Part shown: positions 4,037 through 42,510 of the stretch, piece after piece
How the letters are laid out: each line of letters opens with the position of its first letter
Position numbering within the stretch: the first letter of the stretch is position 1
Source of the DNA: a virus
Taxonomy: Duplodnaviria > Caudoviricetes
Length of the DNA: 64,000 nt
IMG/VR virus record: IMGVR_UViG_3300017990_000017
Span: 737-64,736 of that record
Reading direction: 5' to 3' (one strand)
Position numbers and translations under genes: made by a program
The notes under the pieces: model-generated
Told to the model about the DNA's origin: nothing
The model's database searches: none
The model's input: only the letters and a program-made list of their open reading frames with translations

Positions 4037-4945
4037 GTGGCTGTATGCTTCAATATCGGACAAGAGCTCGGCAGGAACGATCTCAAGATCTTCCTGGTCG
4101 ATGAGCTCGGTGTCCCTTGTGATGCGGCTGAGATCTCGTACGCCCTCTACTTCGTAGACCAGAGCATGGGCCCACCAGGGGTCGAGGTTCTGGTTGGGCC
4201 GCCTGCACACGTACCAGTGAACCCTGCGGTTGGTGAGTACTACGCCGCCATCATGGTGTTCCCGGGCGTCTCTGCGGGCGACTACCGGATCCGGTGGACA
4301 TTCCGGAAGACGTTGATGGACGAGCCGCAAGAGGTCGTCCAAGAGTTCTGCATCGTTGAGCCCTCGAGCTCCCAGTTCGGGCAACGACTGCTCTCGAGTT
4401 GTGAGCAGGACCTGGTGGACAAGCTTCGGATCATGCTCCGGGACAACAACCCGGACCGCAACTATCACTTCCGTCCTCCCGAGCAAGAGGGCGTGATCAA
4501 GAAGTACAACCGCGTCTTCGGCTACGTCTGGGAAGACCACGAGCTGCTTTGCTACCTCGAGATGGGACTCGACTGGTTCAACGCGATGCCTCCTGAGACG
4601 GAGGGCATCCGTACACTCAACGATCTGTGCGCTCGCAAGCCGGTGTGGCGTACGTTCATTTTGTGGGCGGCAGCGGTGCACGCGCTCTTCGCTTTGAGCA
4701 TCAACTGGGTGCACGACGAGTTCGACTACAGCATCGGTGGGATCTCGTTGAGTCTCGAGAAGTCGAGTAAGTACGAGAGCCTGAAGCAGAACGCAGAGGG
4801 CCAGCTCGATAAAGCGACAGAGGCCAAATCCCGGACCGTGAAATTCATCCGAGGGTTGCAACAACCGAAGTTCGGTTTCGGTGTCCGCTCTAGTTTCGGG
4901 CCCGCGACTGGTCGGGGTGTGCTTTCGCCGCGATCATTTGTGTAG
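4037..4945 (+). CDS. Putative head-tail adaptor/neck protein
   Basis: Beta-rich N-domain followed by a helical segment (DKLRIMLRD..WEDHELLCYLEMGLDWFN..YSIGGISLSL) typical of adaptor proteins; position in the head-to-neck region. Confidence 0.5.
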   Translation: MAVCFNIGQELGRNDLKIFLVDELGVPCDAAEISYALYFVDQSMGPPGVEVLVGPPAHVPVNPAVGEYYAAIMVFPGVSAGDYRIRWTFRKTLMDEPQEVVQEFCIVEPSSSQFGQRLLSSCEQDLVDKLRIMLRDNNPDRNYHFRPPEQEGVIKKYNRVFGYVWEDHELLCYLEMGLDWFNAMPPETEGIRTLNDLCARKPVWRTFILWAAAVHALFALSINWVHDEFDYSIGGISLSLEKSSKYESLKQNAEGQLDKATEAKSRTVKFIRGLQQPKFGFGVRSSFGPATGRGVLSPRSFV

Positions 4946-4970
4946 TAAAATCAAGCACTTACAAACAACT

Positions 4971-4999
4971 TTGATTTGTTTTTGGTCACGCGATAGTCT
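4971..4999 (+). promoter_or_regulatory. Sigma70-like promoter, apparently leaderless, for the 5006 gene
   Basis: TTGATT-N17-TAGTCT-N6-ATG; identical geometry at 37823. Confidence 0.5.
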
Positions 5000-5005
5000 C
5001 TTTGA

Positions 5006-6685
5006 ATGACCGAGTTGCGCTGTCCGGCCTGCCAAAAACCGCTCTCATCCCCCAAAGCCGTCCCCAAGCACACGAATGGGTGCTCCAAGTGGGATGAGGT
5101 GATCGGTGTGCCGCCGTCGGAGTTCAATTTCGACAGGCATTTTGGTCGCGGTTTGTGGGCGCCTGAGAAGGTTGAGAACGAGGACTATGTCGGGTGTCTT
5201 CTCTGTGCTGCTGAGGGCACAGAAGTCCGAGTGAAGCGTCTGAGCGACCATCTCAAGCGCGCTCACGACGGGATGAAGCGCAAGGAGTACGAGAGCCGGT
5301 TCCCTGGAGCTCCAGTGGTCGCGCGTTCTTCAGGTGCCAAACGCAAGAAGACGACGCAGGCCAAGTACGGCGTCGACAACGTCGGGCAGAGCGATGAGGT
5401 CAAGGAGAAGACGCGGGATACGGCACGTCGCAAATACGGGGTTGATCATCATCTGAAGTCCAAGAAGGTGCAGAGGAAACGGCGACGCACGAATCGGGAG
5501 CGGTACGGCGCCGACAATGTTTTCGCGTCCGAGGAGATCAAGGAGAAGATCCGCGCGACAAACCTTGACCGTCACGGGGCCGAGAACCCGCAGCAGGTTC
5601 CTGAGATCCGACGACGTACCGAGCAGACCACACTGGAGCGTCACGGGGCTGTTTCGTTTCTGCAATCCGCGACTTGGTATGCCGAGCTGGCGCGTGCTCG
5701 GGGAGAGCGCGAAAAGGCCCGGAGAGAAGAGCTGATCGTTTCCGGCAACTACGAGATCTGTCCTCACTGCGACGAGGTGTTCACCAAGGTCACGAGCCGC
5801 CACAAGGCGATCTGCGAAGGCTGGCCTGACACGGAAGCTCCTGAGCCGTGTTTGTGTGGGCACGAGAGCACCTCGTTGACCCAGATGAAGAGGCACCGAC
5901 AGGTGTGTGTCGTCTGGATGTTTCGGGATGCTGAAGCGGTGACTCGCGCACGTCGTCTACGGACCATGTTGGAACGGTGGGGTGTTGAGAACCCTCAACA
6001 ACATCCAGAGACTCGTACAAAAACCGAAAAGACCAACATGGAGCGTTACGGGGCTATAAGCCCTTTCGCTCAAGGGTCCATTCTCTACGAGCAGGTTCAA
6101 GCCGCGTTAGAAGGTAAACGTCCCATTCTCCGGGGCAACGACAACCCGTTCGCGTGGCCTCGGGTAAAGGAGAAGGTTCTGCGTGAGTGTCTCGCCAAAG
6201 TGGGATACGAATTTCCGGAGTACGGAACCGAAGCCGAGACCCTCGAAGATTTGGCGGATCGGTATGGCATGACACATCCGATGCAGGACCGGGACTTCGC
6301 TCGGATGATGCTCCACGCACAGAGCAGTTCCCGAGAACCGAATGGTCCTGAACGCATGGTTCAAGAGATGGAGCCCCGTCTTCTGTACACCGGGAACCGC
6401 ACGTTCTGGAGGTGGCTCCCCCGCCTCGGGCGTCACAAGAACCCTGATTTCGTGTTGCGCGGTCCCGTACATGGCCATCCTTTCCGCGATCTCCGCAAAG
6501 TGGTGGAGGTGAACGGAGATTTCTGGCACAGCGAGCAGTTCACGGGCGTTTGGCCTGAGCAGCACGAGTCCGAGCTCATCGAGGCGTATGCCGAAGTCGG
6601 CCTCGAGTGCCTCGTGATTTGGGAGTCCGAGGTCAAAAGCGATCCTGAGGGTGTGGCCGGACGCCTGCGCGACTTCCTTGGGTAG
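5006..6685 (+). CDS. Zinc-finger/repeat protein with C-terminal Vsr-like PD-(D/E)XK nuclease (free-standing homing endonuclease-like)
   Basis: Multiple CxxC/H motifs, repeated (K/R)YGVDN..Q..E.(K/R)EK units, and C-terminal NPDF..VVEVNGDFWH..LVIWE. Confidence 0.7.
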   Translation: MTELRCPACQKPLSSPKAVPKHTNGCSKWDEVIGVPPSEFNFDRHFGRGLWAPEKVENEDYVGCLLCAAEGTEVRVKRLSDHLKRAHDGMKRKEYESRFPGAPVVARSSGAKRKKTTQAKYGVDNVGQSDEVKEKTRDTARRKYGVDHHLKSKKVQRKRRRTNRERYGADNVFASEEIKEKIRATNLDRHGAENPQQVPEIRRRTEQTTLERHGAVSFLQSATWYAELARARGEREKARREELIVSGNYEICPHCDEVFTKVTSRHKAICEGWPDTEAPEPCLCGHESTSLTQMKRHRQVCVVWMFRDAEAVTRARRLRTMLERWGVENPQQHPETRTKTEKTNMERYGAISPFAQGSILYEQVQAALEGKRPILRGNDNPFAWPRVKEKVLRECLAKVGYEFPEYGTEAETLEDLADRYGMTHPMQDRDFARMMLHAQSSSREPNGPERMVQEMEPRLLYTGNRTFWRWLPRLGRHKNPDFVLRGPVHGHPFRDLRKVVEVNGDFWHSEQFTGVWPEQHESELIEAYAEVGLECLVIWESEVKSDPEGVAGRLRDFLG

Positions 6686-9878: not shown

Positions 9879-12800
9879 ATGGCCGGCAACCAGACAGACA
9901 ACCTGACACTGCTCGATCTCACGACGGGGCTCATTCGCACCGTTGAGACGGGTGGCACCCCAGACACCATTCAGCTCTCCACCGATTTCGAGCTCATTAC
10001 GGGCGCGAACATGTTGGTGGACGGGAACTTGATCGTCAACGGAACGACCACCACGGTCAACTCCGAACAGGTCAATATCCGTGACAACCACCTGTACCTG
10101 AACGCGGACTACACGACCACGGTCGCCCAGACGGGTGGCATCGTCGTGAACGTCCTGCCGACGGCGACCGCCGACACCATCGCGGGCACTTTCGTGGCTG
10201 GTGTTCCTGCGGTGTCGAACCCGACCGTGCAGACGACGGGTACTGGTACGTTCGCGGCTGGCGACATCGTCCAGATTGCCGGTTCGAACCTGGATGACAA
10301 CGACGGCATCTTCGAGGTGTTGAGCCACGTCGGCACGACCCTCACGATCCGTGGTGTTGGTGTGACAGGCGCGACCGTCCCTTGGGTGGTCAACGACTTC
10401 ACGGCGGATGCTACCGCCGGTGGTGACATCCGCATTGTCAACGTCAACGTCCTCGAGGGCGACTCGAGCGGAAACTGGCAGACCGCCACGACCACGACGA
10501 CCACGGGGCTGACGTACAACACGTTCACGACTCAGGGCACTGTCGATCTTCAAGAGGCGTACGTCCAGGGCAACACGATCACGACCTCGGGTGCTGAGGG
10601 CAACGTGGTCATCGCCGGCACCGAGCTTCTGAGCATCACGGCTGCTGGCGGTATCGACCTCGATACCGTCTTCGATGCTGATGTGACGACTTTCGATGTC
10701 CAGATGACGGGCACGAACGGCTTCAGCATCGACGGTACTGCTGCGTCGAACGTCGGCGTCACGGCTGGTGACCTGACGCTGTCCACGACCACGTCGGGCA
10801 ACATCATCGCTTCGTCGGCGGCTGCGTTGGACGTGGACGCTGCGACCTCGATGACGTTCGACACCGCGAACGCTGCTGACGCTTCGGGCAACGACATCAC
10901 CTTCACCGCCGGCTCTTCGACGGGCGGCACCGCTGGTGGTGCTTCCATCGTCCTCACTCCTGGTGACGGCAACACGACCGGTGTGGCCGGTTTCGTGGAC
11001 ATCACGTCTCCGGCCGACGAGGACGAGGTCCTGCTTCAGATCGCGTCCACCGGCACCAACGGCAACACGGTCGGGTTCTTCACCGGTACTTCGGTTCCGA
11101 CTGGTGTGGTCACGGCGGATGCGGGTTCTCTGTTCTTCCGGGATACGGGATCGGGAGCGGAGGCTTACCTCAACACTTCGACTGGTTCGGGCACGACCTG
11201 GACGCAGCTTGCGGCTGGTGGCGGCAACAGCCTTCAGCAGGCGTACGAGGCTGGGAACACGATCGTCACTGATGCCACGAATGGGCCGTTCGATGTTTCG
11301 GGAACTCAGGCCATCAGCTTGGATGCGGGTCTTGCGTCGAACTTTTCGGTAGCCGGCGCGAACTTGACGCTCGAGACTACCACCAGTGGCAACCTGACCG
11401 TTGCTGCGGCGGACGTCTTGGCCCTTTCGGCAGGAGATGAGGTGGCTGCGGCCGGTAACGCCGTCACCGTTGATGCTGGTGATGGCGGTGGCGCCAACAA
11501 CGGTGGTGCCGTCAGCCTCACAGGAGGTAACTCTGGAGCGGGTGCCACGGGTAATGGCGGCAATGTCAACATCTCTGCGGGTGATGCTCTCTCCACCAAT
11601 GGTGACGGAGGCGTCATCGCTCTTGATGTGGGTGCCAACACGGGTACTGGCATCCAGGGATTCGTGGACATCGTTGGAGACAACAACGAGGACGAAGCAC
11701 TGGTCCGACTGTCGACGACAGGGACCAACGGCGATTCGGTCCAGTTCTTTGTTGGTGACAGCGATCCGAGCGGCACCATCACGGGTCTCGCGGGGTCGCT
11801 CTTCTTCCGAGACACGGGCGCGGGTGCTGAGCTCTACCTGAACACCTCAACGGGTTCCGGGACCACTTGGACGGAGCTTTCCACGGGTGGTGTTGTCACT
11901 CTCCAGAATGCGTACGAGAACGGCAACACGATCGTTACCGACGCTACGAACGGACCGTTCGACGTTTCGGGAACTCAAGCCATCTCTCTTGATGCTTCTC
12001 TCGCTTCGAACTTCACCGTTGCCGGTGCCAACCTCAGTTTGGGCACCACTACATCGGGCGATGTTCTGGTCGATTCGGCAGGGTTGCTCGAGCTCAACTC
12101 CTCGGGTGGTGCGATCAACATCGGCAACGACGCCAACACCGGTGCCATCAACATCGGCACGGGCGCTGCGGCTCGTACTCTCACGATGGGTAACGCCACG
12201 GGCGCTACCTCGGTGAACTTCGACTCGGGTACCGGGGCCTTCACCTTCGATTCGACGGTGGCTGAGACGGCTGCTCTGATGACGCTGACGACCACCGGTA
12301 TCAACGGTGACTCGGTCAACTTCTTCGTCGGCGACAGCGATCCTAGCGGCACCGTGACGGGTCTGGCGGGCTCGCTGTTCTTCCGTGATACGGGCACGAC
12401 CGGTGAGGTCTACATCAACACCTCGACTGGCTCGGGCACCACGTGGGCTCAGGTGGCGACGGGCGGATCGGTTACGCTCCAGAACGCCTACGAGGGTGGA
12501 AACACCATCACGACGGACACCACGAACGGTGACTTCGATGTCTCCGGCACGGAGGCCATCAGCCTCGATGCTTCGGCTGCTTCGAACTTCTCGGTCGCAG
12601 GCGCCAACCTGACGCTCGAGACCACCACGTCGGGCACCGTGGATATCACGTCGGCGGATGACATCCAGATGACGTTCGAGACCAACAACGCCACGGCGAT
12701 GGTCATCGATGACGGAACCAACAACTTCCTGACGTTCGATTCGACGACGGGAAGCCAGGCTGTTGAGGTCAACCAATTCCTCGACATCACGGGCAGCGGT

Positions 12801-30314: not shown

Positions 30315-33300
30315 ATGGCCGATTTCCCAGGCAACATTTACGCCCCGCCCGGCGTGTACACGCGGACGCTTTTCGAGAGCCCGGTTTCCGCTGTACTTGC
30401 TGGTGTCCGGATTCCTGTCTTCATCGGGACCGGTAACGAGCTTCTCCAGCAACAAGACCTCGAAGTCATCCGTGGCTCCTCGAGCTCCGTGGACCAGCAG
30501 GTTCCACAGGAGGACGAGACTGGTCGCGCGGTAGTCTCGATCTCCGACACTGGCCAGGTCACCCTCGGTGACTTCAATGGCGAGCGTCGTCGGATCCAGG
30601 TGCGCAACTTCCCCATCACCAACGGTGATGGCAGCGGCACCATCGCCACCGACCCGAGCTCGATCTTCGTGACGATCAACGGGCGTGCCGATGTGGTGCT
30701 CAGCGTCGCGCGCGCCGACATCGGCGTCATCGAGATCAGCACCGCTCCCGAGCTCGGTGACGATGTGCGGATCACGTACTTCTTCAAGCGGACCGACTCC
30801 CAGATCACCGACGATGTCTCGAACCAGGCGACGCCCTCGAGCGCCGTCCTGGATGGCGCGCTCGGCAACCAGTACGAGTTCACCGCCGACACCAACGAGC
30901 TCACCGTCACGGTGGATTTCGACCAGTCGCAGGCGACTCAACAGGTCGTGACCGCGACCTTCCCGACTGGGAGCGTCACTGCCGCCACGGTTGTCTCGTT
31001 GATCAACGGCGCGGCAGCCGGCACGTCTCTCGTCGCTTCGGAGTTCACGAACAACTTTGGCCAGACCGCTGTGCGTTTGGTTGCTGACCGTGATCTGCTC
31101 ATCGGCGACGGATCGGCCAACGTCGTCTTGGGCTTCTCGCGGGGTCAGAGCACCAACCGCAACCGAACTTTCTACACCTACAACGGTCCCATCGTGGACG
31201 GTACCAACGGCGGTATCACCACCACCGACGTTTCGAAGGTGACGGTTCGCGTGGACGGGGTGCAGGTCATCCCCACAGAGGTGGACGGCCAGAACCACGC
31301 TGTGACGCTGCCCTTCGCTCCCGAAGTGGGATCGCAGGTCACTGTCCAGTACTTCTTCAACTCGTGGCAAGACACGTTCGACTACCTGGCGAACATCAAT
31401 GTCACCGAGGTCTTGCGGTGCGGCATCGTTCCGCTCAACAACGATTTCATCGAGGGTGCTGACTTCATCCTCAAGGACGACCTGATCGTCTGGGGTTCCG
31501 CTTTCCTGGTGTCGCCCGGAGTCACGAGCCCCGGAGCTCCCGCGTTCGGTCCCACGCAGATCAGCGGCCTGCTCATCGACAACCGATGGTTCCTTGCGCC
31601 CACCGATGTGGTGGTCGACGACACGGTCAACCCGCCTGTTGAGGATCGTACCAAGTTCACGTTGCCGGCTCAGCCCACCACGGGCAACGGTCGTGACACC
31701 CCGCTGGGTCAGCAGACTTTCCTCAGCATCAGCAACAACCGTCTCGATCTCCCGACCAACAACCCGAACCTGGTTCGGGCCTACTGGGGCTTCAGCATCC
31801 AAGACGCCCTCCAGCGCGGTCCGGTGACGGTGACGCAGGTTCAGGGTACGGAGATCACCCTCGAGCAGCCGGTGCCCGTGGGCGCCGAGGTTTGGGCGAC
31901 CTTCTGGTACAACATCCTCGTCGATGAGGAGTACACCGTTCAGGTTGAGACCAGCGGACCGTCGGGCATCGGTACCTACTTCCTGTTCGACAGCAACGGG
32001 AACCCGGTCTACACGCCGAAGTTCGGTAGCAAGGGTCCGGCGCTCACCGGCGTCACGATCCAGTTCCCGAGCGGCTCGGAGATCACTCCCGACGTTCACT
32101 TCGAGGGCGGCACGCAAGGCCCCGTCGAGGAAACCGTCACCATTCAGTTCTCCGACAAGGACTCGACGATCGGCAAGTTCACGGTTCCCGGTTCGGGCCC
32201 GTATTTCTTCGTCGAAAGTCAGTCGGACCGAGCTCGGTTCACCATCGACAGCTCTCCGCTGGCGGGCGGTGCGGCCGGCATCGATCTCTCGGCGCCACAC
32301 GGCATCGCGGGTCTCGGTTTCAACGCCTCGCTCCTTGGTGAGGAGATTGTCTACACCGACGACTCGGGCAAGACGACCTACGATGTTCTCGCCGGTCTGA
32401 ACGACAACATCTCGTTCACGGTGGACAACGTGGTGGTCACGGTGAACGTCCCGGCACAGACGGGCGTGAACGCCGATGCCTACGTCGAGGCGATCAACGC
32501 TGAGTCCAAGCTCGCTGACAACAACCCGTACTACGACGGCGTGACGCGGTTCCTCGGAACCACGACCATCACGGCTGGTGAGTACGACACCCTCACGTTC
32601 AACTACACGGGCGTCACCAACGGCAGCACTGGCCCGGTGACGGCGACCATCGCCCCGGGTATCTACGTGTCCCCGAACGCGCTGGCTGCTGCGGTGAACT
32701 CCGCACTCGACACCGCCATCGCTGCTCTCCCGGCAGCCTACGATGGTGTGGACGTGACCTGCACGGCGAACGCGGACGGTCAGATGCGGTTCACCTTCAC
32801 AGGTGCCGACACTGACCTCGGTACCTTCGCGACCGGCACCGTCACCAACGTGGCTTCGGTTCTGGGAGACACCATCGAGATTGGAGGCATCACGCTTACC
32901 GGTTCCCTTGGGGTCACTCCCGGCGGTCTCGACTACGACACCGGCCAAGCTCGAGGCACCATCATGGCTGCCGGCGTTCAGCCTGGTGACACCATCACCA
33001 TCGATACCACGGCAGTGGGCGGTGGCCCGGTTCTCCTGACCGCAGCCGGAGCTCAGACTCCGGGTGGCCTCAACTTCAATGAGGGCGTCCAGGCGAGCGG
33101 CACCATCACCGTGAGCGGGCCGATCCCGAACGACACGGTTACCGTTGACGGCATCACTCTGACCGCTTTGGGAATGCAGTCCCCGGGTGGTCTGGACTTC
33201 GACGAAGGCACCCGTTCGACCGGTTCGGCTACCCTCGCCAGCGTCGTGTACGGCGACACCATCACCATCGACGCTTCGGTCGTGGGTGGTGGTCTCGTCA

Positions 33301-36300
33301 CTCTGACGGCCAGCAACACGCTCACCCCTGGTGGTCTGGACTTCAACGTCGGCACCGCAGCCACGGGTGACTTCATGACCATGGGCGTGCGACCCGCCAC
33401 CATGGCGCCGTTCCCCGTCACCCCGGCGGACACGGTTACCATCGGCGGTTCGGTCCTCACTCCGGTTGAAGGTGCCCGTACTCCGGGTTTCGATGACTTC
33501 GACGCGGGTACTCGCTCTGTCGGAACTCTGACCGTCGTGGCCGATTCTCTCGGTCCCAGCACGGGTGTCTTGTACGGTGACACGATCACCATCAACGGCA
33601 TCCCTCTGGTGGCGGACAGCGTGACCACACCTGGTGGTCTCAACTTCGACGCTGGTACTCAGGCGACGGACACGCTGACCGTGACCGCTTCTCCGGCCAG
33701 CGCGACGATCACGATCGACGTGGGTGGTCTCAACGGCGGCCCCTTCCCGCTGACTCCGGCGGGTGGTCCTCGTACCCCGGGTGCGAACGACTACGACGAG
33801 ACTCTCGGCACCACGGCTGCCATCGCGGGTGAGATCGCTGCTGCGATCAACGATCCGTCCAACTCCTTCGCCACGTTCATGAGCGCGGCGGCAGGTCCTG
33901 GGCCGGCGGATGTGACCCTGATCTGGACGGTTCCGGGTGTGCTCTCCAACGGTGTCGTCAACAGTAGCTCCGACGGTACGGTCACCACGACCGGTGGCTT
34001 CGGCGGCGGTGTGGGCGACGAGATCACCACTGCGACGGCCATCGTCGCGGCGATCCTTGACCCGCTCAATGGTTTGGATGCTCTCATCCAGGCTCACAAC
34101 ACCGGTGGCACTTCGGCTACCGTCAACATCCAGGCGTTGGCTCCGGGTGTGGCGGGCGACTCGATCAGCACGGTTTCGACCACGCCTGCTCGACTCACCT
34201 TCGGTGGTGGCTTCCTTGCTGGTGGTGTTGGTGACAACAACACCGCTGCGACGGACGCTGCGGCTGCCATCAACGATGCGTTGAACTCTTTCACCGCTAC
34301 CGCAACCGCTGTTGCGGTGGGCAGCAACGTGAATCTCACGGCTGTGACTCCGGGCGCTGCGGGCAACCTCATCGCTCTGAGTACTACGGCAGCGGGTCGT
34401 TTCGTCCTTTCGGGGGGGTCCTTCACCGGTGGTCTCGGCGACGACATCTCGGCGGCGACAAGCCTGGTGGCGGCCATCACCGATCCCGCGAACGGTCTGA
34501 CCGACATTGTGGCTGATAACGTGGGCGGTACGTCGGCGGTGGTCACTCTCGATTCGTTTACGCCGGGCCTGGTAGGTGATGGCATCCTGCTCTTCGAGAG
34601 CACGGGTGGTGTTCGCATCATGCTCTCGGGCGCGAGTCTCCTCGGCGGTGTTGGTGACGACACCACTGTGGCGGCTTCCATCGCGGCAGCCATCAACGAT
34701 GCTGGTAACGGCATCAGTGCCACGGTGAGTGCGATGGCGGTGGGCAATGTGGTCACCATGACCGCTGTCACCCCTGGTAACGCGGGCAACATCATCGACA
34801 CGACGAGCTCGGATGCAAGCCGTCTCCTCATGTCGGCGGTCACTCTCCAGGGTGGTGTGGGCACCGATTTCACGGTGGCTGCTTCCATCGCGGCGGCGAT
34901 CAACGACCTGGGTAACGGTCTTGCGGCTGATATCTCGGCGGACAATGAGGGCGGCACGAGCACCACGGTGACCGTGTGGGCCAACGTTCCGGGTGTGGCT
35001 GGCAACGGCATCACTTTGGCGAGCTCGACTCCGGTGCGTCTCCCGCTCTCGGGTGGTGTGTTTGGTGGTGGTCTCACCGACGTGGGTGTGGCGACGACCA
35101 TCGTTACGGCCATCACCGATCCACTCAACGGTCTGGACACGCTCGTCACGGCCGACAACAGCTCCGGCACTTCCTCCACTGTGGACCTCACGGCGGCGGT
35201 CCCAGGCCCGCAGGGGAACTTCATCACGCTCTCCTCGAGCGACATGGTCCGTCTCCCGGTGTCGGCGGCGACTCTCACGGGTGGCTCCGGGCTCGGCGGC
35301 GGTGTGTTCGAGTTCCTCGATGGCGCGTCTTTGGCTGTGGACTTCGCGGTTCTGGCCGGTCTGTCTACGGATTCGCTCCCGAGCCAGGAGCAGACCAAGA
35401 TCGTCGATGGTGATGTGGCTCGCCGCTTCACGGCAGCGGGTGTGAGTGGTCGTCTGATCTACGACCGCATCATCATGCGCAACCGCGTCACTCCGGGGTC
35501 CGGTTCCATTCGTCCGGAAAGCCAGGTTGCTCAGACCAACCTGGTCATACAGGGAACCAACGCCAACGACGAGACGGGACTGGCTTCCCGTGCCTTCGGC
35601 GAGGCGGGCATCGGTGCTGTGATTCAGCCGGCGACGCTCTACGGCGAAGTCGGGTTCGCGGATGGTCAGGTGCCCTCGGGTACCTTCGGCGACGCTCGAG
35701 ACGGTCAGCCCCAGGTCCAGTTCTTCGGACCGAACGGGGTCAACCCCCAGAACAACGTGTTCAAGTTCAACGTTGATGGCACTCCCGTCACCGTCGTGTT
35801 CACGGACGCTTCTGGGTTCGCCATCCCGACGGCGGGTACCGCTACGGTTCCGCTTGGGCCGCTCGGTACGCCGAACACCATCCTCAGCCAGATTCAGACG
35901 GCGGTTGTGGGTGCGGGTCTCTCGCCCATGACGGTCGCCCCCGAAGGTGCCGGTATGCGACTCGTCTCGCAACTGGTGGATACCAACTCGGCTGTGACCA
36001 TCGACAACGGCAACGCCAACGACGTGCTCGGGTTCTCCGAGGGCGCCACGGCTACCCGTGACTCGGTGCAGGTCGAGAAGGTGGCTTCGGCGCTGATGAT
36101 GCACCACAGCACGACCATCAATGGTGTGCTGCTCGATTACCAGAGCCCCGACGCGAACTGGTTCGCGGCTCAGGCTCTGGCGGCCAAGGAAGTGGACTCC
36201 AGCAACGCGGAGTTCCTGTTCATCCAGTCGCAGGCCAACAACATCGTGGGTCTGGGCGCTTCCTCGAACATCGTGTTCCTGGACGCGACGACCGACTCCT

Positions 36301-37772
36301 GGCTCCGTACCGGTACTGGCCTTCGGGTCCAGTCGGGCGACGGTGCTTCGGGCGAAACTGGGTTCCAGGGCTTCTACGTCACGAGCTCCGATCCCATCGA
36401 CGGTTCCGGTTCGGCCAACACCTCGTGCCTCAACAACGGCACGGGTCAGGACGGCGTCATCGGTCAGAGCTACCGTGACACGGTCACGGGGCTTGTCTTC
36501 ACCATCCTCCCGCGTGAGGGTGGTGCAGACTACCCGATCGGACCGGGGGCGTTCTTCACCTTCGAGGTACGGCGCTTGGTGACCACGGACGCCAACGTCC
36601 CGGTCAACTCGCTTCCTGGCCTCGAGCTCACGGTGGCGAACACCGAAGGTTCGACCATCCCGACGGGCGATACGGCCATCGTCGAGACCTTCGACCGTGG
36701 CGGTCAGGAGCCGGCGGTGGGTGACAGCTACTTCGTCACCTACAACTACTCCAAGACGGAGGCCGACTTCGAGACCCAGCTCTTCACCAACCAGCGGGCG
36801 GTGGAGCGGAACTACGGTGAGATCAGCCCGGATAACCCGGTGTCTCTCGCGGCGTTCCTCGGGTTCTTGAACGGAGCTGTGGTCCTCGGCATCAAGCAGG
36901 TGCCGAAGATCCCGGGCAGCAACCAGGCCAGCACGCCGACTTTCATCGACGCGCTCAACGACTTGCGTGGCCCTCTGCCTGGTGGTGCGGTTCTCGACAC
37001 CATCACCCCGCTCAAGGGTGATGATGTGGACCTGTTCTTGTCCCTCAAGAACCACTGCGACATCCAGTCCAGCATCCGCTTCCGAGCGGAGCGTACGGGC
37101 ATCATCGGAGTGGCTTCGGGCACGCAACCCACTGACGTGGGAGGCATCGCTCAGCAGATCCAGAGCACCCGCATCCGTCTGGTCTACCCGGACATCGTGA
37201 CGCTCACCGTCCAGGACGCCCTCGGCAATGACAAGCAGTTCCTGCTCGATGGCACCTTCTTGGCTGCGGCCATGACCGGTAACCGGGCGAGCCCGAACAT
37301 TGACGTGGCAACCCCGTGGACGCGGGCACGCATCGTCGGGTTCGACCAGCTCGCACGGACGCTGGACGCTGTCGAGCAGAACCAGGTTGCGGTTCAGGGC
37401 GTCACCGTCCTTGATCAGCGTGGCACCGTGATCCGGGTCCGTCAGGGCCTCACCACGGACATGAGCAACATTCTGACCAAGCTCCCGACCGTGATCACCA
37501 TCGCGGACGAGGTGCAGCGGGCAGCTCGACGAGACCTTGATCGCTTCATCGGCATCAAGTTCCTCCCGGGTGTGCTCAGTCAGATCGAGGGTCAGCTCTC
37601 GACCACGATGAAGGCGCTCAAGAACGCCGAGATCATCACGGCGTTCACTGGGATTCAGGCACGGACGACCAACGACCCGACCATCGTCGAAGTCGAGGCT
37701 TTCTATCAGCCCGTTTTCCCGCTTTTGTATATCGTCATCACTTTCAATCTGCGCTCGAATTTGGGCGGATAA
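30315..37772 (+). CDS. Giant contractile tail sheath protein (2485 aa)
   Basis: N-terminal YAPPGVY..PVFIGTG and a C-terminal sheath core (IRVRQGLTTD..IADEV..FIG..YQPVFPLLYIVITF); followed downstream by the tube gene. Confidence 0.88.
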   Translation: MADFPGNIYAPPGVYTRTLFESPVSAVLAGVRIPVFIGTGNELLQQQDLEVIRGSSSSVDQQVPQEDETGRAVVSISDTGQVTLGDFNGERRRIQVRNFPITNGDGSGTIATDPSSIFVTINGRADVVLSVARADIGVIEISTAPELGDDVRITYFFKRTDSQITDDVSNQATPSSAVLDGALGNQYEFTADTNELTVTVDFDQSQATQQVVTATFPTGSVTAATVVSLINGAAAGTSLVASEFTNNFGQTAVRLVADRDLLIGDGSANVVLGFSRGQSTNRNRTFYTYNGPIVDGTNGGITTTDVSKVTVRVDGVQVIPTEVDGQNHAVTLPFAPEVGSQVTVQYFFNSWQDTFDYLANINVTEVLRCGIVPLNNDFIEGADFILKDDLIVWGSAFLVSPGVTSPGAPAFGPTQISGLLIDNRWFLAPTDVVVDDTVNPPVEDRTKFTLPAQPTTGNGRDTPLGQQTFLSISNNRLDLPTNNPNLVRAYWGFSIQDALQRGPVTVTQVQGTEITLEQPVPVGAEVWATFWYNILVDEEYTVQVETSGPSGIGTYFLFDSNGNPVYTPKFGSKGPALTGVTIQFPSGSEITPDVHFEGGTQGPVEETVTIQFSDKDSTIGKFTVPGSGPYFFVESQSDRARFTIDSSPLAGGAAGIDLSAPHGIAGLGFNASLLGEEIVYTDDSGKTTYDVLAGLNDNISFTVDNVVVTVNVPAQTGVNADAYVEAINAESKLADNNPYYDGVTRFLGTTTITAGEYDTLTFNYTGVTNGSTGPVTATIAPGIYVSPNALAAAVNSALDTAIAALPAAYDGVDVTCTANADGQMRFTFTGADTDLGTFATGTVTNVASVLGDTIEIGGITLTGSLGVTPGGLDYDTGQARGTIMAAGVQPGDTITIDTTAVGGGPVLLTAAGAQTPGGLNFNEGVQASGTITVSGPIPNDTVTVDGITLTALGMQSPGGLDFDEGTRSTGSATLASVVYGDTITIDASVVGGGLVTLTASNTLTPGGLDFNVGTAATGDFMTMGVRPATMAPFPVTPADTVTIGGSVLTPVEGARTPGFDDFDAGTRSVGTLTVVADSLGPSTGVLYGDTITINGIPLVADSVTTPGGLNFDAGTQATDTLTVTASPASATITIDVGGLNGGPFPLTPAGGPRTPGANDYDETLGTTAAIAGEIAAAINDPSNSFATFMSAAAGPGPADVTLIWTVPGVLSNGVVNSSSDGTVTTTGGFGGGVGDEITTATAIVAAILDPLNGLDALIQAHNTGGTSATVNIQALAPGVAGDSISTVSTTPARLTFGGGFLAGGVGDNNTAATDAAAAINDALNSFTATATAVAVGSNVNLTAVTPGAAGNLIALSTTAAGRFVLSGGSFTGGLGDDISAATSLVAAITDPANGLTDIVADNVGGTSAVVTLDSFTPGLVGDGILLFESTGGVRIMLSGASLLGGVGDDTTVAASIAAAINDAGNGISATVSAMAVGNVVTMTAVTPGNAGNIIDTTSSDASRLLMSAVTLQGGVGTDFTVAASIAAAINDLGNGLAADISADNEGGTSTTVTVWANVPGVAGNGITLASSTPVRLPLSGGVFGGGLTDVGVATTIVTAITDPLNGLDTLVTADNSSGTSSTVDLTAAVPGPQGNFITLSSSDMVRLPVSAATLTGGSGLGGGVFEFLDGASLAVDFAVLAGLSTDSLPSQEQTKIVDGDVARRFTAAGVSGRLIYDRIIMRNRVTPGSGSIRPESQVAQTNLVIQGTNANDETGLASRAFGEAGIGAVIQPATLYGEVGFADGQVPSGTFGDARDGQPQVQFFGPNGVNPQNNVFKFNVDGTPVTVVFTDASGFAIPTAGTATVPLGPLGTPNTILSQIQTAVVGAGLSPMTVAPEGAGMRLVSQLVDTNSAVTIDNGNANDVLGFSEGATATRDSVQVEKVASALMMHHSTTINGVLLDYQSPDANWFAAQALAAKEVDSSNAEFLFIQSQANNIVGLGASSNIVFLDATTDSWLRTGTGLRVQSGDGASGETGFQGFYVTSSDPIDGSGSANTSCLNNGTGQDGVIGQSYRDTVTGLVFTILPREGGADYPIGPGAFFTFEVRRLVTTDANVPVNSLPGLELTVANTEGSTIPTGDTAIVETFDRGGQEPAVGDSYFVTYNYSKTEADFETQLFTNQRAVERNYGEISPDNPVSLAAFLGFLNGAVVLGIKQVPKIPGSNQASTPTFIDALNDLRGPLPGGAVLDTITPLKGDDVDLFLSLKNHCDIQSSIRFRAERTGIIGVASGTQPTDVGGIAQQIQSTRIRLVYPDIVTLTVQDALGNDKQFLLDGTFLAAAMTGNRASPNIDVATPWTRARIVGFDQLARTLDAVEQNQVAVQGVTVLDQRGTVIRVRQGLTTDMSNILTKLPTVITIADEVQRAARRDLDRFIGIKFLPGVLSQIEGQLSTTMKALKNAEIITAFTGIQARTTNDPTIVEVEAFYQPVFPLLYIVITFNLRSNLGG
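32829..35291 (+). repeat. Seven A-type then seven B-type protein half-repeats inside the sheath
   Basis: A = G(T/S)xT..DT(I/V)TI..LT...TPGGL(D/N)F(D/N)xG, seven copies (32829-33809). B = A..IxAAIxDxxNG..V.(L/I)..PG..G(N/D).I...S....GG.G, seven copies (33810-35291). Confidence 0.85.
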
Positions 37773-37774
37773 CC

Positions 37775-37818
37775 AAGAAAAAGGGGTGGGGTTCGCAGGT
37801 CTTTACCCCTTTCTTTTC
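37775..37818 (+). terminator. Rho-independent terminator after the sheath gene (possibly bidirectional)
   Basis: AAGAAAAAGGGGT...ACCCCTTTCTTTTC stem with flanking A and T tracts. Confidence 0.65.
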
Positions 37819-37822
37819 TAGG

Positions 37823-37851
37823 TTGATTTGTGGACCGGCTTCCGGTAGGCT
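37823..37851 (+). promoter_or_regulatory. Sigma70-like promoter, apparently leaderless, for the 37858 gene
   Basis: TTGATT-N17-TAGGCT-N6-ATG. Confidence 0.5.
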
Positions 37852-37857
37852 GGGTGC

Positions 37858-38470
37858 ATGGATGAGACCCAGAATGCAGAGGCCCGGAGACTTTTCTCCG
37901 GGCCTCTGACTTTGAGCGAAGCGGCCAAGACCTTGGGAGTGGGTCGGGACCGCCTCCGTCGTTTCTGGGGCGACGTGTTCGGCGACGAGGCTGTCAGATC
38001 TCGGGGGAATGCAGCCCGAGGCAGGGCTCGGAGCAGGAGCCGTTTGAAAGGCGACGACTTGGCGCGAGCGCGCGAGAAGGGCCTCTCGCAGTTCCACAGC
38101 ACCATTCCCCTGAAGAAGGTGGCCAAGGAGGTGGGGGTTCACTCCACCGTCCTTCGACGCTGGTGGAGGGAGGAGTTCGGAGAGCCGGCGACGCTCGAGC
38201 GCGCCAGACGTTTGCAGAAGACCAACACCGTCGGCGTCACGGGGCCTCGGAAGTTGAAGAAGACGCGTGTTAGTTGCTCAGAGTGTGGTGTGGAGTTCGA
38301 AACCACGCTCATGTCGCTCGCCAAACGCGCCACCATCGTTTGCGAAGGTTGTCTGTCCAAAAAGAAAAACCCAGTGGCCTGTCCTGTGTGCGGGCTCGTG
38401 TGCGAAGGTCCCAAAGGGTTGTCTGTCCATCTTCGGCACTCCAGAGACGACCCGGCACATCGAGAGTACG
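37858..38470 (+). pseudogene. 5' part (HTH + zinc fingers) of a split endonuclease-methyltransferase gene
   Basis: Two HTH-like segments and CxxC fingers end at ..PAHREY. The frame continues at 40560 if the insertion is removed. Confidence 0.75.
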
Positions 38471-38827
38471 GCGCGCAAGGGCGCGGACGTGGTCTTCAGC
38501 CAGGAGCCGCCGCCACCGGAGCCCGAAACAGTGCGCCGCCCGGCCCGGGTCGCCCGGACGCTGGCCCTGGCGCACCGCCTCCAGCGGGCCATCGACAGCG
38601 GCGAGATCCAGGACCGCGCCACGCTCGCCCGCCAGTACGGGCTCACCCGCGCCCGGGTCACCCAGCTCCTGAACCTGACGCTGTTGGCCCCCGACATCCA
38701 GGAGCAGGTCCTCGCGCTCGAAGCGGTCGATGGGCTGGAGCCCACCAGCGAGCGGGCGCTCCGGGAGGTGTCGTGGGCGATGGAGTGGGAGGAGCAGCGG
38801 CGGCGGTGGGCGAAAATTGTGGGATAA
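38471..38827 (+). pseudogene. 5'-truncated gene of the type found beside serine recombinases in bacterial genomic islands
   Basis: LALAHRLQRAIDSGEI.DRATLAR..GLTRARVTQLLNLTLLAPDIQE. The frame is entered at the left junction with no convincing RBS/start. Confidence 0.55.
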
Positions 38828-38854
38828 ACACCTGAACACCTGCCCAGTTTTGGC

Positions 38855-38884
38855 TTGCACTCTCTTGTACTCTGTTGTACTCAC
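38855..38884 (+). repeat. Three tandem 10-bp repeats (putative operator)
   Basis: TTGCACTCTC TTGTACTCTG TTGTACTCAC, 5 nt before ATG 38890. Confidence 0.55.
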
Positions 38885-38889
38885 GAGAC

Positions 38890-39111
38890 ATGGAACCGAT
38901 TGCTCACAGCCAGGACAAGGCACTTACTGTCCATGAAGTTGCTGATCTACTCAAGGTCAATGAGCGGACAGTGTATCGCTTGGCATGCAAGGGCATGCTT
39001 CCAGGGTTCAAGGTCGCTGGTACATGGCGATTCATGGCAAATGACGTTTCCGAATGGATAAAAAACGAAAAAGAGAAAGCTCGGGTCGCAGGAACGGGAG
39101 GTCACAAGTGA
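38890..39111 (+). CDS. Excisionase-family HTH DNA-binding protein
   Basis: LTVHEVADLLKVNERTVYRLA..G.LPGFKV.GTWRF. Confidence 0.85.
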   Translation: MEPIAHSQDKALTVHEVADLLKVNERTVYRLACKGMLPGFKVAGTWRFMANDVSEWIKNEKEKARVAGTGGHK

Positions 39112-40130
39112 AAAGACCGGTAGCAATGGAGATATGCGCCGGTGGCGGCGGACAAGCCCTGGGTCTCGAACTCGCGGGATTCGACCATGCTGCCGTAGTT
39201 GAGATCGACTCTGCAGCGTGTGCAACGCTGCGTCAGAATCGACCCTCATGGAATGTAGTTGAAGGAGACCTGAAAGAGTTCGACGGAAAGCCATACCGGG
39301 GAATTGATCTATTGGCGGGAGGTGTTCCCTGTCCGCCGTTTTCCATTGCTGGGAAACAGCTCGGAGCCGATGACGAAAGGGATCTTTTCCCGGAGGCTCT
39401 GCGTCTTGTCAGAGAGACCAAGCCACGTGCAGTGTTGCTCGAAAACGTGCGGGGGCTTGCATCACCGAAATTTGCAGATTATCGAGCGGGAATCATTCAA
39501 AAACTAGGTCGAATGGGATACCGCGCGGACTGGCGCCTTCTCAACGCCAGCGATTTCGGTGTCCCGCAACTTCGTCCTAGATTTATTCTAGTTGCACTTC
39601 GCAAGGAAATTGCAGACCGTTTCGAGTGGCCTGAGCCCATCGGCAGTCCGCCAACCGTCGGTGCGACGCTGAAGGATCTGATGTCGTCTGGCGGCTGGGC
39701 TGGGGCCGACAATTGGGCGAAGAGAGCAGCGGATATTGCACCCACTGTTGTTGGAGGATCAAAGAAACACGGTGGGCCAGACTTGGGTCCAACTCGGGCC
39801 AAAAGGCAGTGGCTCGAACTTGGAGTCGATGGCTTGGGGATAGCGTACGACCCGCCCGGTCCTGATTTTCCAAAGGAAGGTACTCCGAAACTCACGGTTA
39901 AGATGGTTGCCCGTGTTCAAGGCTTCCCCGATGCATGGGAGTTCTCTGGCAAGAAGACCGCTGCATATAGGCAAGTCGGCAACGCATTTCCACCACCGGT
40001 CGCAACGGCTGTTGGAAAGGCCATTCTCAATGCTTTGTCCGAAAATGGGAAGTCGGTGAATCCTGACCGGGGACTGACCGGTCTTCCATTACTGGAGATG
40101 ATGGAGAGGGCGGAACAACAGAATACCTAG
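39108..40130 (+). CDS. dcm: C5-cytosine DNA methyltransferase, M.NaeI/M.NgoMIV-like (likely GCCGGC)
   Basis: Motifs EICAGGGG, GGVPCPPFS, ENVRG, QLRPR and YRQVGNA. The variable region APTVVGGSKKHGGPDLGPTRAK is closely similar to M.NaeI as recalled. GTG start with GGAGG. Confidence 0.9.
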   Translation: MKRPVAMEICAGGGGQALGLELAGFDHAAVVEIDSAACATLRQNRPSWNVVEGDLKEFDGKPYRGIDLLAGGVPCPPFSIAGKQLGADDERDLFPEALRLVRETKPRAVLLENVRGLASPKFADYRAGIIQKLGRMGYRADWRLLNASDFGVPQLRPRFILVALRKEIADRFEWPEPIGSPPTVGATLKDLMSSGGWAGADNWAKRAADIAPTVVGGSKKHGGPDLGPTRAKRQWLELGVDGLGIAYDPPGPDFPKEGTPKLTVKMVARVQGFPDAWEFSGKKTAAYRQVGNAFPPPVATAVGKAILNALSENGKSVNPDRGLTGLPLLEMMERAEQQNT

Positions 40131-40167
40131 TGAGAATCTGGGCGAAACTGATGACCGATGGGGCGAA

Positions 40168-40559
40168 TTACTTCTTTTTGTCAGTGACGTACTCGGCTAC
40201 CGCTTCCGCAACGCAGAGACCCAGACTTTTGCCCGTGTCGATGGAGTATTGCTTCAGCGCCACCTCTACATCGCGAGAAACCTGTACCAGCAGCCGCCGC
40301 CCAACTCGTTCTGGGAACGCCCATGAGCATTCCTGGCATTCAAGTTCGCAATCCGCACACGCTCTTCGTTTGCCGACGTTACACTCCACGCATAGCGGCT
40401 GCCAGTTGGTAATGTCGTGTGACCCACCTCGCTTGAGAGGGACTTTGTGGTCGGCTTGCAGCCCCCGCACTCCAGCCGCGAACTTCCGATCGCAAACTGC
40501 ACACCGGTACCTTGCACGGTTGAAGAGATCCTTTTTTTGGCCCTCGGTGAGAGAGTACG
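40168..40559 (-). pseudogene. HNH endonuclease (probable cognate REase), 5'-truncated at the insertion junction
   Basis: CAVC..LQADHKVP..GG....NWQPLCVECNVGK..C..C. Convergent with the MTase; the track start (40584) lies outside the insert. Confidence 0.7.
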
Positions 40560-42187
40560 AGAGGGAAAAATCGACGGCCGACACGAGTTTGGATGACCTT
40601 GAGGAGGGAGAGGACTACGTCCGGTGCCAAGTGTGCGGGATGGCGGCCAAGTCACTGTCGAGCCACATCCGGGTCCACGGTTTGAATTGGGTCGAGTACG
40701 CCCGGAAGTTCCCTGGATTCTCGCTGTGGTCGAGGAAATCTTACGAATACCGGAGGGCCCGCCTTCAAGAGACCCATCGGAGAGCGGGGATCACAGAGAA
40801 GGACTTTGCCCCGTACACGGACGAGAACGGGGACCTTGTGGTGGCGGCTGCCGCCAAAGGTTTGAAATTCTCGCAGGGCACCATCCGGGAGTACGCCAAA
40901 CTTCTCGACGTCCCCACCCGGAACCGGCTCTCGGCTCAGAAGCAGGTGCTGGACCTCATCTCTGGTGTTTTGGGGGAGAGGTACGTGTGGGAGTGGTCTG
41001 ACGATAGGGTGCGGAGCCCGGACACGGGCGCCCTCCTCTACTACGACGGTTTCTTCAGAAGGCACAACCTTCTCGTCGAGTATCACGGCCCGCAGCATTT
41101 CCAGTTCGTCCCTCGGTGGCACAGGACCCCGGAGGGGTTCGATCGACAGCAGGATATCGACAGATACAAAGCGCGGCGGGCCGAGGAGCTGGGTATCGAG
41201 CTGGTCGTCGTACGTCATACGGACGACATCAGCGAGGAGAACCTGCGGAGCATCCTCCAGAACCGCGTGGGGTATCAAGAGAGGCAGCAGCGGCGGGAGG
41301 CCGCTGCTGAGGCTGCGATGGAGCGTTTGCGCGGCAGCGATTTCCCTCTCCCCGAGCAGCCCTCCCCCGAGGAGGCTTCGGAGGTGTTGGAGAAATTGAG
41401 GAGGCTGCGGCAGCGGGAGGAAGAGGGAATTGTCCTGCCCCGCTCGTACACCGGCAACGCGCTGTGTCGCAGGTATTTCCCCAACATTTACAAAGCCCGA
41501 CGCAAGGGGCACCCCTCTGCCGTCGAGTGCTGGGAAAACGACCAAGAGCTTCGCAGGGCGGTTCTGACGCAGATCGACGCCGGACACCCCACAACCCCTG
41601 AGCGCGTTCTCAAAGCTTTGACGTTTCACCACAGGCTCCCCGCAGTGTTCCGTCCCGCCTTCGCCCGTTTCATCTACGAGAAGTTTGCGCGGCCTGGGGA
41701 CTTGGTCTGGGACCCTTGCTCCGGCTACGGGGGGCGCCTCCTGGGGGCCGCTGCCGCGAGGGTCCGCTACATCGGCACAGACATCGAGCCGGAGACCGTC
41801 GAGGGCAACCTCGCTCTGGCCGCCGACATCGGATACAAGGCCGACGTCAGGCTTGTGTCCGCCTTGGACGCCGACATCCCCGAGGTGGCTCTGGTGTTCA
41901 CGTGTCCCCCTTATTTTGACATGGAGCAGTACTCCGACCGCGAGGGGCAGCCGCACGTCTCCTATGACGGGCGCTCCGACTGGATCGAGAGGTTCCTGTT
42001 CCCTCTGGTGGGACGGGCCTCCGGGGCGCTGTCGACGGGAGGGCGTCTGGTTTTCGTCCTCCCGGACGACCTTCACGTCGCCTCGTCGCCCGAGATCCTC
42101 CGGAAAGGTTTCGTCTGGGACGCAGAGATCGGTTTCGAGCTCCCGAACGGCAAGGTCTCCAAGGCCGTCGCCTATCGTAAAAAGTAG
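40560..42187 (+). pseudogene. 3' part of the split gene: zinc finger + PD-(D/E)XK nuclease + amino-DNA methyltransferase
   Basis: EDYVRCQVC..HIRVH finger; YYDGF....LLVEYHGPQH nuclease; WDPCSGYGGRLLG..YIGTD SAM-binding motif; FTCPPYF motif IV variant. Confidence 0.75.
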
Positions 42188-42221
42188 TGCTCGTTCGTCT
42201 ATAGCTCTCCGTATCGCAGAG
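42188..42221 (+). promoter_or_regulatory. Putative late promoter motif, copy 7 (degenerate)
   Basis: TGCTC-N7-TATA-N12-GCAGAG, with ATG 3 nt later. Confidence 0.4.
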
Positions 42222-42224
42222 AGC

Positions 42225-42419
42225 ATGAGCGACAGCAGCGGCTACATGAACGTGCCTCCCACCGAGCTCGCTCGGATGGTCAAGGGGGAGCGAGATCCCG
42301 AAAAGCGCAGGGAGATGCAGAAGGCACTCGACGCTTGGCGGCTGACCCAGGGGAACCCCCTCGCTCGAAGTGCACAGCGCGTGGCGCGCTCGTGGCTGTC
42401 CTCGTTTGTCTGTTTATAG
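42225..42419 (+). CDS. Small protein (64 aa) with C-terminal RVARxWL motif
   Basis: MSDSSGYMNVPPTELAR...AQRVARSWL. It is the 3' end of track ORF 41685..42419 and sits between two promoter motifs. Confidence 0.5.
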   Translation: MSDSSGYMNVPPTELARMVKGERDPEKRREMQKALDAWRLTQGNPLARSAQRVARSWLSSFVCL

Positions 42420-42437
42420 GCGGCACTTTGAGTAGAG
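42403..42437 (+). promoter_or_regulatory. Putative late promoter motif, copy 8
   Basis: CGTTT-N7-TATA-N13-GTAGAG upstream of the tail tube gene. Confidence 0.55.
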
Positions 42438-42510
42438 GGACTGATCTTGTCCCATTTTGCGCGGTCCTGGTCCCCTGTTGGGCCCAGCCGCCTCACCGAG
42501 AGGAAGGCCA

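Follow-up and report, generated by a model that had tools for sequence, protein, structure and literature searches.

Filled and empty alleles of a huge-phage gene interrupted by a foreign insert with a C5 cytosine methyltransferase gene

The interrupted gene and the content of the insert

The DNA considered here, hereafter referred to as the window, is a stretch of 64,000 nucleotides corresponding to bases 737–64736 of the linear, 64,736-b IMG/VR virus record IMGVR_UViG_3300017990_000017 (Duplodnaviria; Caudoviricetes), and the 14% completeness assigned by CheckV indicates that it is a fragment of a very large phage. Within the window, a gene for a protein of 746 amino acids (aa) is split by an insert of 2080 bp of foreign DNA lying between two direct copies of the 9-mer GAGAGTACG. 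Two pieces of different composition make up the insert (Table 1; the GC content of the window is 0.60): segment A, which holds the remnant of a small gene (gene A), and module B, in which a helix-turn-helix (HTH) gene and a gene for a C5 cytosine DNA methyltransferase are followed by the convergent remnant of an HNH restriction nuclease gene. Metagenome assemblies contain the locus in both its filled and its empty form.

The repeat, the two copies of which had been reported in the initial annotation of this DNA and were confirmed on the + strand, is exactly 9 bp long, the adjoining bases being different on either side; a third copy occurs on the − strand at 12174–12182, and the three matches present in the window, against 0.37 expected, represent a number reached in 0 of 100 shuffles. 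The N-terminal half of the gene ends with ...DDPAHREY at 38469 and the frame of the C-terminal half begins with EREKSTADTS... at 40559, the insertion point being situated in the variable linker that separates two zinc-finger motifs (CPVCG / C.xCG). Removal of 38471–40559 by script yields 2241 nt, i.e., 746 codons and a single terminal stop, as had been annotated, and the joined open reading frame (ORF) aligns end to end, with 37–59% identity, with 6/6 uninterrupted homologues from other huge-phage contigs. These homologues were found upon searching with the protein of the C-terminal half, which gave 21 matches at E ≤ 0.001; the six uninterrupted ones have 727–751 aa, cover 92–98% of the query and include P0004, a 746-aa protein encoded on a 618-kb contig. 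In these relatives, among which it had been proposed to look for uninterrupted alleles, the halves form one gene; the two halves seen here are one gene as well, and the insertion is the derived state.

The N-terminal half contains HTH motifs and MucR/Ros-like zinc fingers, its Pfam matches being weak, while the C-terminal half combines a zinc finger and an N6/N4-type methyltransferase domain, the latter with the motif TCPPY, with a middle domain that is endonuclease-like. The latter half matches phrog_559, phrog_12517 and phrog_498, the PADLOC model mad2 (E 6e-10) and the methylase 2zie, and the middle domain of the 746-aa protein matches homing and HNH-endonuclease PHROGs. Altogether, it has the appearance of a free-standing accessory gene, possibly of the homing type. 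LR745208.1, an uncultured phage of 485 kb, encodes homologues of the upstream 2485-aa (53%) and downstream 281-aa (57%) proteins ~650 bp apart (region 4331–5012), with a different 190-aa ORF between them and no 746-aa gene; because of this absence from a related phage, the interrupted gene is accessory and dispensable. Pattern-based scans of viral contigs returned no close relatives of either half, and a 31-nt word of the left flank had 0 matches in these contigs. Distant relatives of the C-terminal half carry LAGLIDADG domains (PF03161).

What remains of gene A, at 38471–38824 with the stop codon at 38825–38827, are its C-terminal 118 aa, matching phrog_14161 (E 5e-25, profile positions 42–140 of 143); PHROGs labels this family "recombinase", the protein itself being small (~155 aa). 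The homologues number 1506, of which the 120 listed have 93–188 aa and the few named ones come from Myxococcota; the best match, P0027, which is encoded on 20.3 kb of sequence, has 155 aa and 97% identity, from which it follows that ~37 N-terminal codons are missing. Related contigs in two of the metagenomic runs described below (X3 and X9) extend leftwards from 38470 and encode the missing ...RRIFTTHFFR. In the viral contig L083 an 89–90% relative of A is located directly after a serine-recombinase-like ORF (phrog_95) and before a different C5 methylase, an arrangement that suggests that the A family is a conserved partner of serine-recombinase-like ORFs. In this contig (187–2918) the A-family start overlaps the end of the recombinase-like ORF, and an MT-A70 methylase is found further on.

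As to module B, the HTH_17/excisionase-family domain spans 38890–39108 and TIGR01764 is matched with 42.1 bits (cut-off 28.8); the TGA stop of the HTH gene overlaps the GTG start of the methyltransferase gene (GTGA overlap). The methyltransferase, which is on record as a gene call of 340 aa, matches the PADLOC cytosine methylase model with E 2e-162 and TIGR00675 with 185.5 bits (cut-off 100.65), its closest solved relatives, for the catalytic domain only, being M.HaeIII and M.HhaI; as these profiles show, the catalytic domain is complete and the gene intact. The HNH remnant corresponds only to positions 102–192 of 219 of the PADLOC REase_II profile (domain at 40171–40552), ~90 N-terminal residues being missing; its frame stays open by chance into phage sequence, as far as a GTG at 40584, with 138 aa encoded in all, and within the insert no start codon is present ahead of the CxxC of the HNH motif. 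The 120 nuclease homologues listed have 187–223 aa, with a best identity of 79%, and the full-length nuclease neighbours of related methylases have 213 and 235 aa. Profile searches are thus in agreement with the initial annotation, which had recognized a 5′-truncated left gene, an excisionase-like HTH, an intact C5 methyltransferase and a 5′-truncated convergent HNH nuclease; they likewise bear out, together with an inverted-repeat scan, the reported lack of transposase, integrase and terminal inverted repeats. In fact, four ORFs occupy the insert except for gaps of 62 and 37 bp, Pfam, PHROGs and NCBIfam detected no transposase, integrase or recombinase in it, and, measured against the 45 chance-level pairs of the region, no terminal inverted repeat was prominent. 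The best inverted pair near an end (38862–38873 with 40552–40563; 12 nt, 92% complementary) is partly phage sequence. The left end of B contains GTACTC, which pairs with the GAGTAC of the 9-mer; as one of the 45 comparable pairs, this pairing was taken as chance.

Table 1. Features of the interrupted locus (coordinates of the window)
Feature	Coordinates	Strand	Remarks
N-terminal half of the interrupted gene, 204 aa	37858..38469	+	43% identity, collinear with P0004 residues 9–204
Left 9-mer GAGAGTACG, target duplication	38462..38470	+	X8 Logan contig stops exactly at 38470
Segment A, foreign DNA, GC 0.72	38471..38851	+	3′ part of a gene for a ~155-aa small DNA-binding-like protein
Module B, 1701 bp, GC 0.55	38852..40552		blastn 100% identity to metagenome contig L002 190–1890
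HTH gene, 73 aa, excisionase / MerR-type HTH_17	38890..39111	+	PF12728 E 3e-12
C-5 cytosine DNA methyltransferase, intact, 340 aa from GTG at 39108	39108..40130	+	PF00145 E 9e-71, profile 4–323/324
HNH type II restriction endonuclease remnant, 5′-truncated, 127 codons inside B	40168..40552	−	PF01844 E 2e-12
Right 9-mer GAGAGTACG	40551..40559	+	first two bases GA also in L002 context
C-terminal half of the interrupted gene, 542 aa + stop	40559..42187	+	66% identity, collinear with P0004 residues 214–746

Filled and empty alleles, and the contexts of module B

Twelve runs are listed for 38200–40800; 11 of them, from 10 studies, hold at least half of the words of this region and 7 are flagged as possible sources. 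The contig layout was examined in four of the 12, namely X1 (sediment, 2018), X3 (seawater, 2021), X8 and X9. In X1 and X3, one contig of 13,072 b covers 37400–41600, including both junctions, without a single difference. One contig each of X8 and X9 links 38461 directly to 40551, thereby skipping 2089 bases, and represents the empty site with a single copy of the 9-mer; the left side of these contigs consists of 21 or 19 letters besides the nine that are shared. No differences occur in the phage flank contigs listed for X8 or in 4/5 of those listed for X9, and the contig end found at 38470 in X8 is the expected branch point between two alleles. Since filled contigs (X1, X3) and empty-site contigs (X8, X9) occur with identical flanks, both alleles of the phage exist, and the insertion is a real one that is polymorphic in the population.

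ORFs and contigs crossing the junctions are present in JGI, ENA and Logan assemblies, on contigs ranging from 7.4 to 105 kb, and the junctions were recovered in runs from at least two campaigns (2018 sediment, 2021 seawater). Within the 90% cluster of the C-terminal half, the 685-aa ORF P0024 (Logan) reads through the right junction, the 546-aa forms P0001 (JGI) and P0025 (Logan) start at a GTG 13 bases inside the insert, and the 515-aa form P0022 is found on contigs of up to 105 kb; no 746-aa member occurs in this cluster. The methylase of the insert is on record on contigs of up to 105,494 b. In X8 and X9 there is no contig cover of 38810–38950, a contig gap that constitutes evidence neither way.

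The age of the insertion can be approached through the restriction sites of the phage backbone (window 1–38470 and 40560–64000, 61.9 kb), in which avoidance is strong: AGGCCT, CAGCTG, CCGCGG, CTGCAG and GCATGC have a count of 0 each, with 5.5–17.5 expected each. The insert (2.09 kb) contains 1 CTGCAG and 2 GCATGC, for which 12.3 and 5.5 occurrences, respectively, would be expected in the backbone; since it carries sites absent from the backbone, the insert has not been shaped by the site-purging selection, and the presence of these purged sites fits the identical flanks of the two alleles in indicating a recent insertion. ACGCGT occurs once in the backbone vs 16 expected.

The only part of the insert recurring elsewhere is its inner 1701 bp, i.e., module B. 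A single scan of metagenome contigs with a module-B word returned L002 alone, the flanks of which differ from the window on both sides of the module. The left edge of B (38852) is identical in the window and in L002 despite the different sequence on its left. On the right, the nuclease frame extends in L002 ~27 codons past 40552, matching homologues (...GEHAYRLL...NPRAY/LTEGQ), and is followed by a stop and by low-GC sequence; since this frame continues, 40552 is a breakpoint and not the end of an element. The premise that the capture decapitated the nuclease must be revised accordingly: ~90 residues are indeed missing, but the gene is N-terminally broken also in L002, ~27 codons further up, so that the nuclease may have been dead before capture. 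No A+B unit with the same two ends was found elsewhere, the A/B junction word and the module-B word having 0 matches in other viral contigs.

The L002 context of module B is itself mosaic. Positions 1–189 of L002 (GC 0.67) encode a GD-repeat fragment, presumably LamG-like, whose frame runs into module B, and the right flank (region 1891–2080, GC 0.45) begins ~80 bp past the window breakpoint; L002-type contigs remain near 2.1 kb in several assemblies. In X8, a 1692-b contig with module B covers 38988–40552 and then continues with the right flank of L002, whereas leftwards, at 38988, it displays 30 unrelated letters; two GCATGC sites separated by 4 bp are present at this point of the HTH gene, the first of them ending at 38988. 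This hints at a variant of the module in X8, or at a third context for it.

Searching with the insert had been expected to reveal the donor and perhaps the host, an expectation that was disappointed. A genome scan with the methylase yielded 323 relatives, of which the best 80 were kept; the top one, at 77%, belongs to a Holophagaceae metagenome-assembled genome and, since the others (61–69%) are spread across many phyla, the best 80 of the 323 name neither donor nor host. Among these 80 loci an HNH relative is nearby in 12 and an HTH gene in 0.

As for the wider setting, all long ORFs of the window are on the + strand and 4 of the 34 other window ORFs have PHROG matches, with 0 integrases or transposases among the 34. 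A 559-aa ORF at 5006–6682 matches the homing-endonuclease family phrog_3339 (E 4e-29), its neighbours being otherwise unannotated phage genes. The 2485-aa ORF at 30315–37772, for which a Pfam and PHROGs search gave no significant family, is conserved in LR745208.1 with 53% identity over the last 476 residues and is probably a giant structural protein. A promoter/terminator scan of 37600–42400 detected no promoter-like site and a single terminator-like one, fewer than the mean of the shuffles.

Origin of the insert

The insert is probably a fragment of another mobile element that was captured illegitimately, an event that left behind a target duplication of 6–9 bp and an orphan methylase. As regards the kind of donor and the mechanism of recombination, we infer the following. 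The donor would have contained the small recombinase-adjacent gene A upstream of an HTH/C5-methyltransferase/HNH-restriction module, i.e., module B, and the captured fragment, copied or cut from this mobile element, would have extended from the middle of gene A to the middle of the nuclease gene. Its entry into the phage gene would have occurred by non-homologous recombination, through a template switch in the course of replication or through the joining of ends at a staggered break, two routes that are indistinguishable here, and re-entry 6–9 bp upstream of the exit point would have generated the duplication of GAGAGTACG. As an outcome, the phage lost its own fused methyltransferase gene and gained an intact HTH–C5 methyltransferase pair, translationally coupled, without a working nuclease.

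At the left junction the donor-like sequence and the phage share the G at 38470 alone, and at the right junction the L002 context shares GA at 40551–40552; because of this microhomology of 1–2 nt per junction, the true target duplication amounts to 6–9 bp. A role of the 9-mer as an attachment core is conceivable; the donor-like right context GAGA-TACG corresponds to 8/9 of the 9-mer with a 1-nt gap, and the donor-like left context shares 1 nt. The initial annotation had invoked microhomology as one possible driver of the capture; an illegitimate event is indeed favored, but the microhomology is confined to these 1–2 nt. Similarly, the proposal that a fragment of a host island had been captured holds as far as the foreign nature of the fragment and the truncation of its end genes are concerned; on the other hand, the insert is composite and, because the A family adjoins a serine-recombinase-like ORF in L083, the donor may be another phage or an integrative element rather than a host island. 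The orphan C5 methylase is probably expressed and, by analogy with what is generally known of phage methylases, would most plausibly shield the phage DNA from a cognate host restriction system.

Several observations weigh against this account. Enzyme-mediated staggered cuts classically leave a clean direct repeat such as the present one of 9 bp, which is accidental under illegitimate recombination; furthermore, the shared left edge of B looks like a defined element end, a resemblance that the capture of a random fragment leaves unexplained. No donor with the A/B junction outside the phage was found in viral contigs. The GCCGGC count of the phage backbone (37 observed vs 30.8 expected) gives no sign of avoidance, for which reason nothing points to a GCCGGC specificity (NaeI/NgoMIV-type) of the methylase, which the initial annotation had called NaeI-like; the linked nuclease is an HNH enzyme. 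With respect to the two alleles, the left overlap of 19–21 letters at the empty site is short, though it fits the ~30-letter contig overlap at a branch; the run data are Logan contigs and not raw reads, with depth given as a single figure for each contig, and the record may derive from X1 and X3.

An outside chance must be granted to an alternative in which the insert, or module B, is a non-autonomous cassette mobilized in trans by an enzyme that makes a staggered cut of 9 bp, be it a transposase or a serine recombinase/small-protein pair. The exactness of the direct repeat and its single copy at the empty site are what such an enzyme would leave, the left edge of B is the same in two unrelated contexts with 100% identity, and the A family stands directly after a serine-recombinase-like ORF in L083; in addition, restriction–modification (RM) genes inserted with 8-bp duplications are described in PMC2853133. 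However, those published 8-bp cases had inverted repeats of 26–65 bp, while none beyond chance is present here; the insert begins and ends within genes, B has at its right end a breakpoint across which the nuclease frame continues in L002, the scans made found the whole A+B unit at no other site, and the 64-kb window yielded no transposase or integrase. The odds are likewise slim that B, or the insert, constitutes a recombinase-less mobile methylase cassette moved in trans between phages or other elements by way of a 9-bp staggered cut; if this were true, the filled and empty alleles would reflect an active, reversible insertion that swaps a fusion gene with an N6/N4 methyltransferase domain for a C5 methylase.

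It is very unlikely that the insert is what remains of a larger integrative element that entered site-specifically, with GAGAGTACG as the core, and whose recombinase was subsequently removed by an internal deletion. The occurrence of the gene A family beside a serine-recombinase-like ORF, the excisionase-family HTH and the short direct repeats at the insert ends could all be read in this sense, but the truncated gene A abuts the left repeat, so that the deletion must have stopped exactly at the attachment core, the HTH gene is translationally coupled to the methylase as would befit a regulator of the module and not an excisionase, and the identical flanks of the empty and filled forms argue for a single recent event.

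An assembly chimera, in which the phage contig would have been misjoined via a short repeat to the DNA of another organism, had been regarded at first as the main alternative and is now rejected as highly improbable. The record is of metagenomic origin, module B occurs in another context in similar samples, and X1 and X3 may be the source samples; nevertheless, both junctions were obtained by different assemblers and in different collections (JGI, ENA, Logan) on contigs of 7.4 to 105 kb, the 2018 sediment and 2021 seawater runs agree with 0 differences over 4.2 kb, the empty site appears in 2/4 runs, and a misjoining would need entry and exit points 9 bp apart in the phage. Finally, a self-splicing intron or intein-like element restoring the gene product after transcription or translation has next to no probability and is already contradicted, even though the frame is restored exactly on removal of the insert and HNH genes are often carried by phage introns: Rfam at E ≤ 1 gave no group I/II intron family in 37500–42500, the frame of the interrupted gene stops at 38833–38835, genes are present on both strands, the insert consists of truncated pieces of unrelated genes, and the insert-free form exists as DNA.

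Significance and relation to known systems

If illegitimate capture is the right explanation, the locus displays a fresh capture visible in public metagenomes, with both alleles, single-base junctions, a 100% identical copy of the module and purged sites in the insert, and provides a concrete natural case in which an uncultured huge phage acquired a gene non-homologously; such fresh events are rarely seen. An orphan cytosine methylase would have been gained, and the fusion gene with the phage's own methyltransferase domain sacrificed for it. The case is a well-documented instance of a known process and not a new type of element, unless mobilization of a cassette in trans proves right.

Among systems already described, the closest are the RM units of Furuta, Abe and Kobayashi (2010; PMC2853133), who report RM insertions with duplications of >30 bp and no other mobile element, other RM insertions with 8-bp duplications and 26–65-bp inverted repeats, and partial RM systems as well. 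Like the units described there, the present insert is recognized from the comparison of an insertion with the empty site of a close relative, has a short direct duplication and lacks a transposase of its own; unlike them, it has a 6–9-bp duplication without inverted repeats, both its ends cut genes, its target is a phage gene and its nuclease is broken. A literature search on phage methyltransferase capture by illegitimate recombination found nothing specific and nothing closer than PMC2853133.

The locus also invites comparison with MADS, in that the small HTH resembles MAD1 (NF047737, E 1e-18) and the interrupted gene shows, in its C-terminal half, a weak similarity to mad2 (PADLOC, E 6e-10); membership was rejected, the MAD1 score of 66.9 bits being below the cut-off of 80, the partner being an ordinary type II C5 enzyme and other MADS genes being absent, so that the likeness is one of resemblance only. 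A short target duplication with a single copy at the empty site is shared with DDE-type transposons, for which a transposase, terminal inverted repeats and a second site with the same ends were not found, and integrative elements differ in that the insert yielded no integrase or recombinase gene. With a type II RM system the insert has in common a complete methyltransferase catalytic domain, and an intact cognate endonuclease is absent.

Phages are known to gain morons and other accessory genes by illegitimate recombination. The insert is akin to these in its foreign composition, in the lack of homology at the junctions and in the dispensable nature of the region; it differs from them by its position inside a coding sequence, its short target duplication and the truncated genes at both ends. 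Finally, orphan DNA methyltransferases borne by phages are used against host restriction, and the present case conforms to this pattern with an intact C5 enzyme that lacks a functional cognate nuclease and is encoded in a phage genome of virulent appearance. What sets it apart is that the arrival of the methylase destroyed another methyltransferase-domain gene and that the acquisition event itself is visible.

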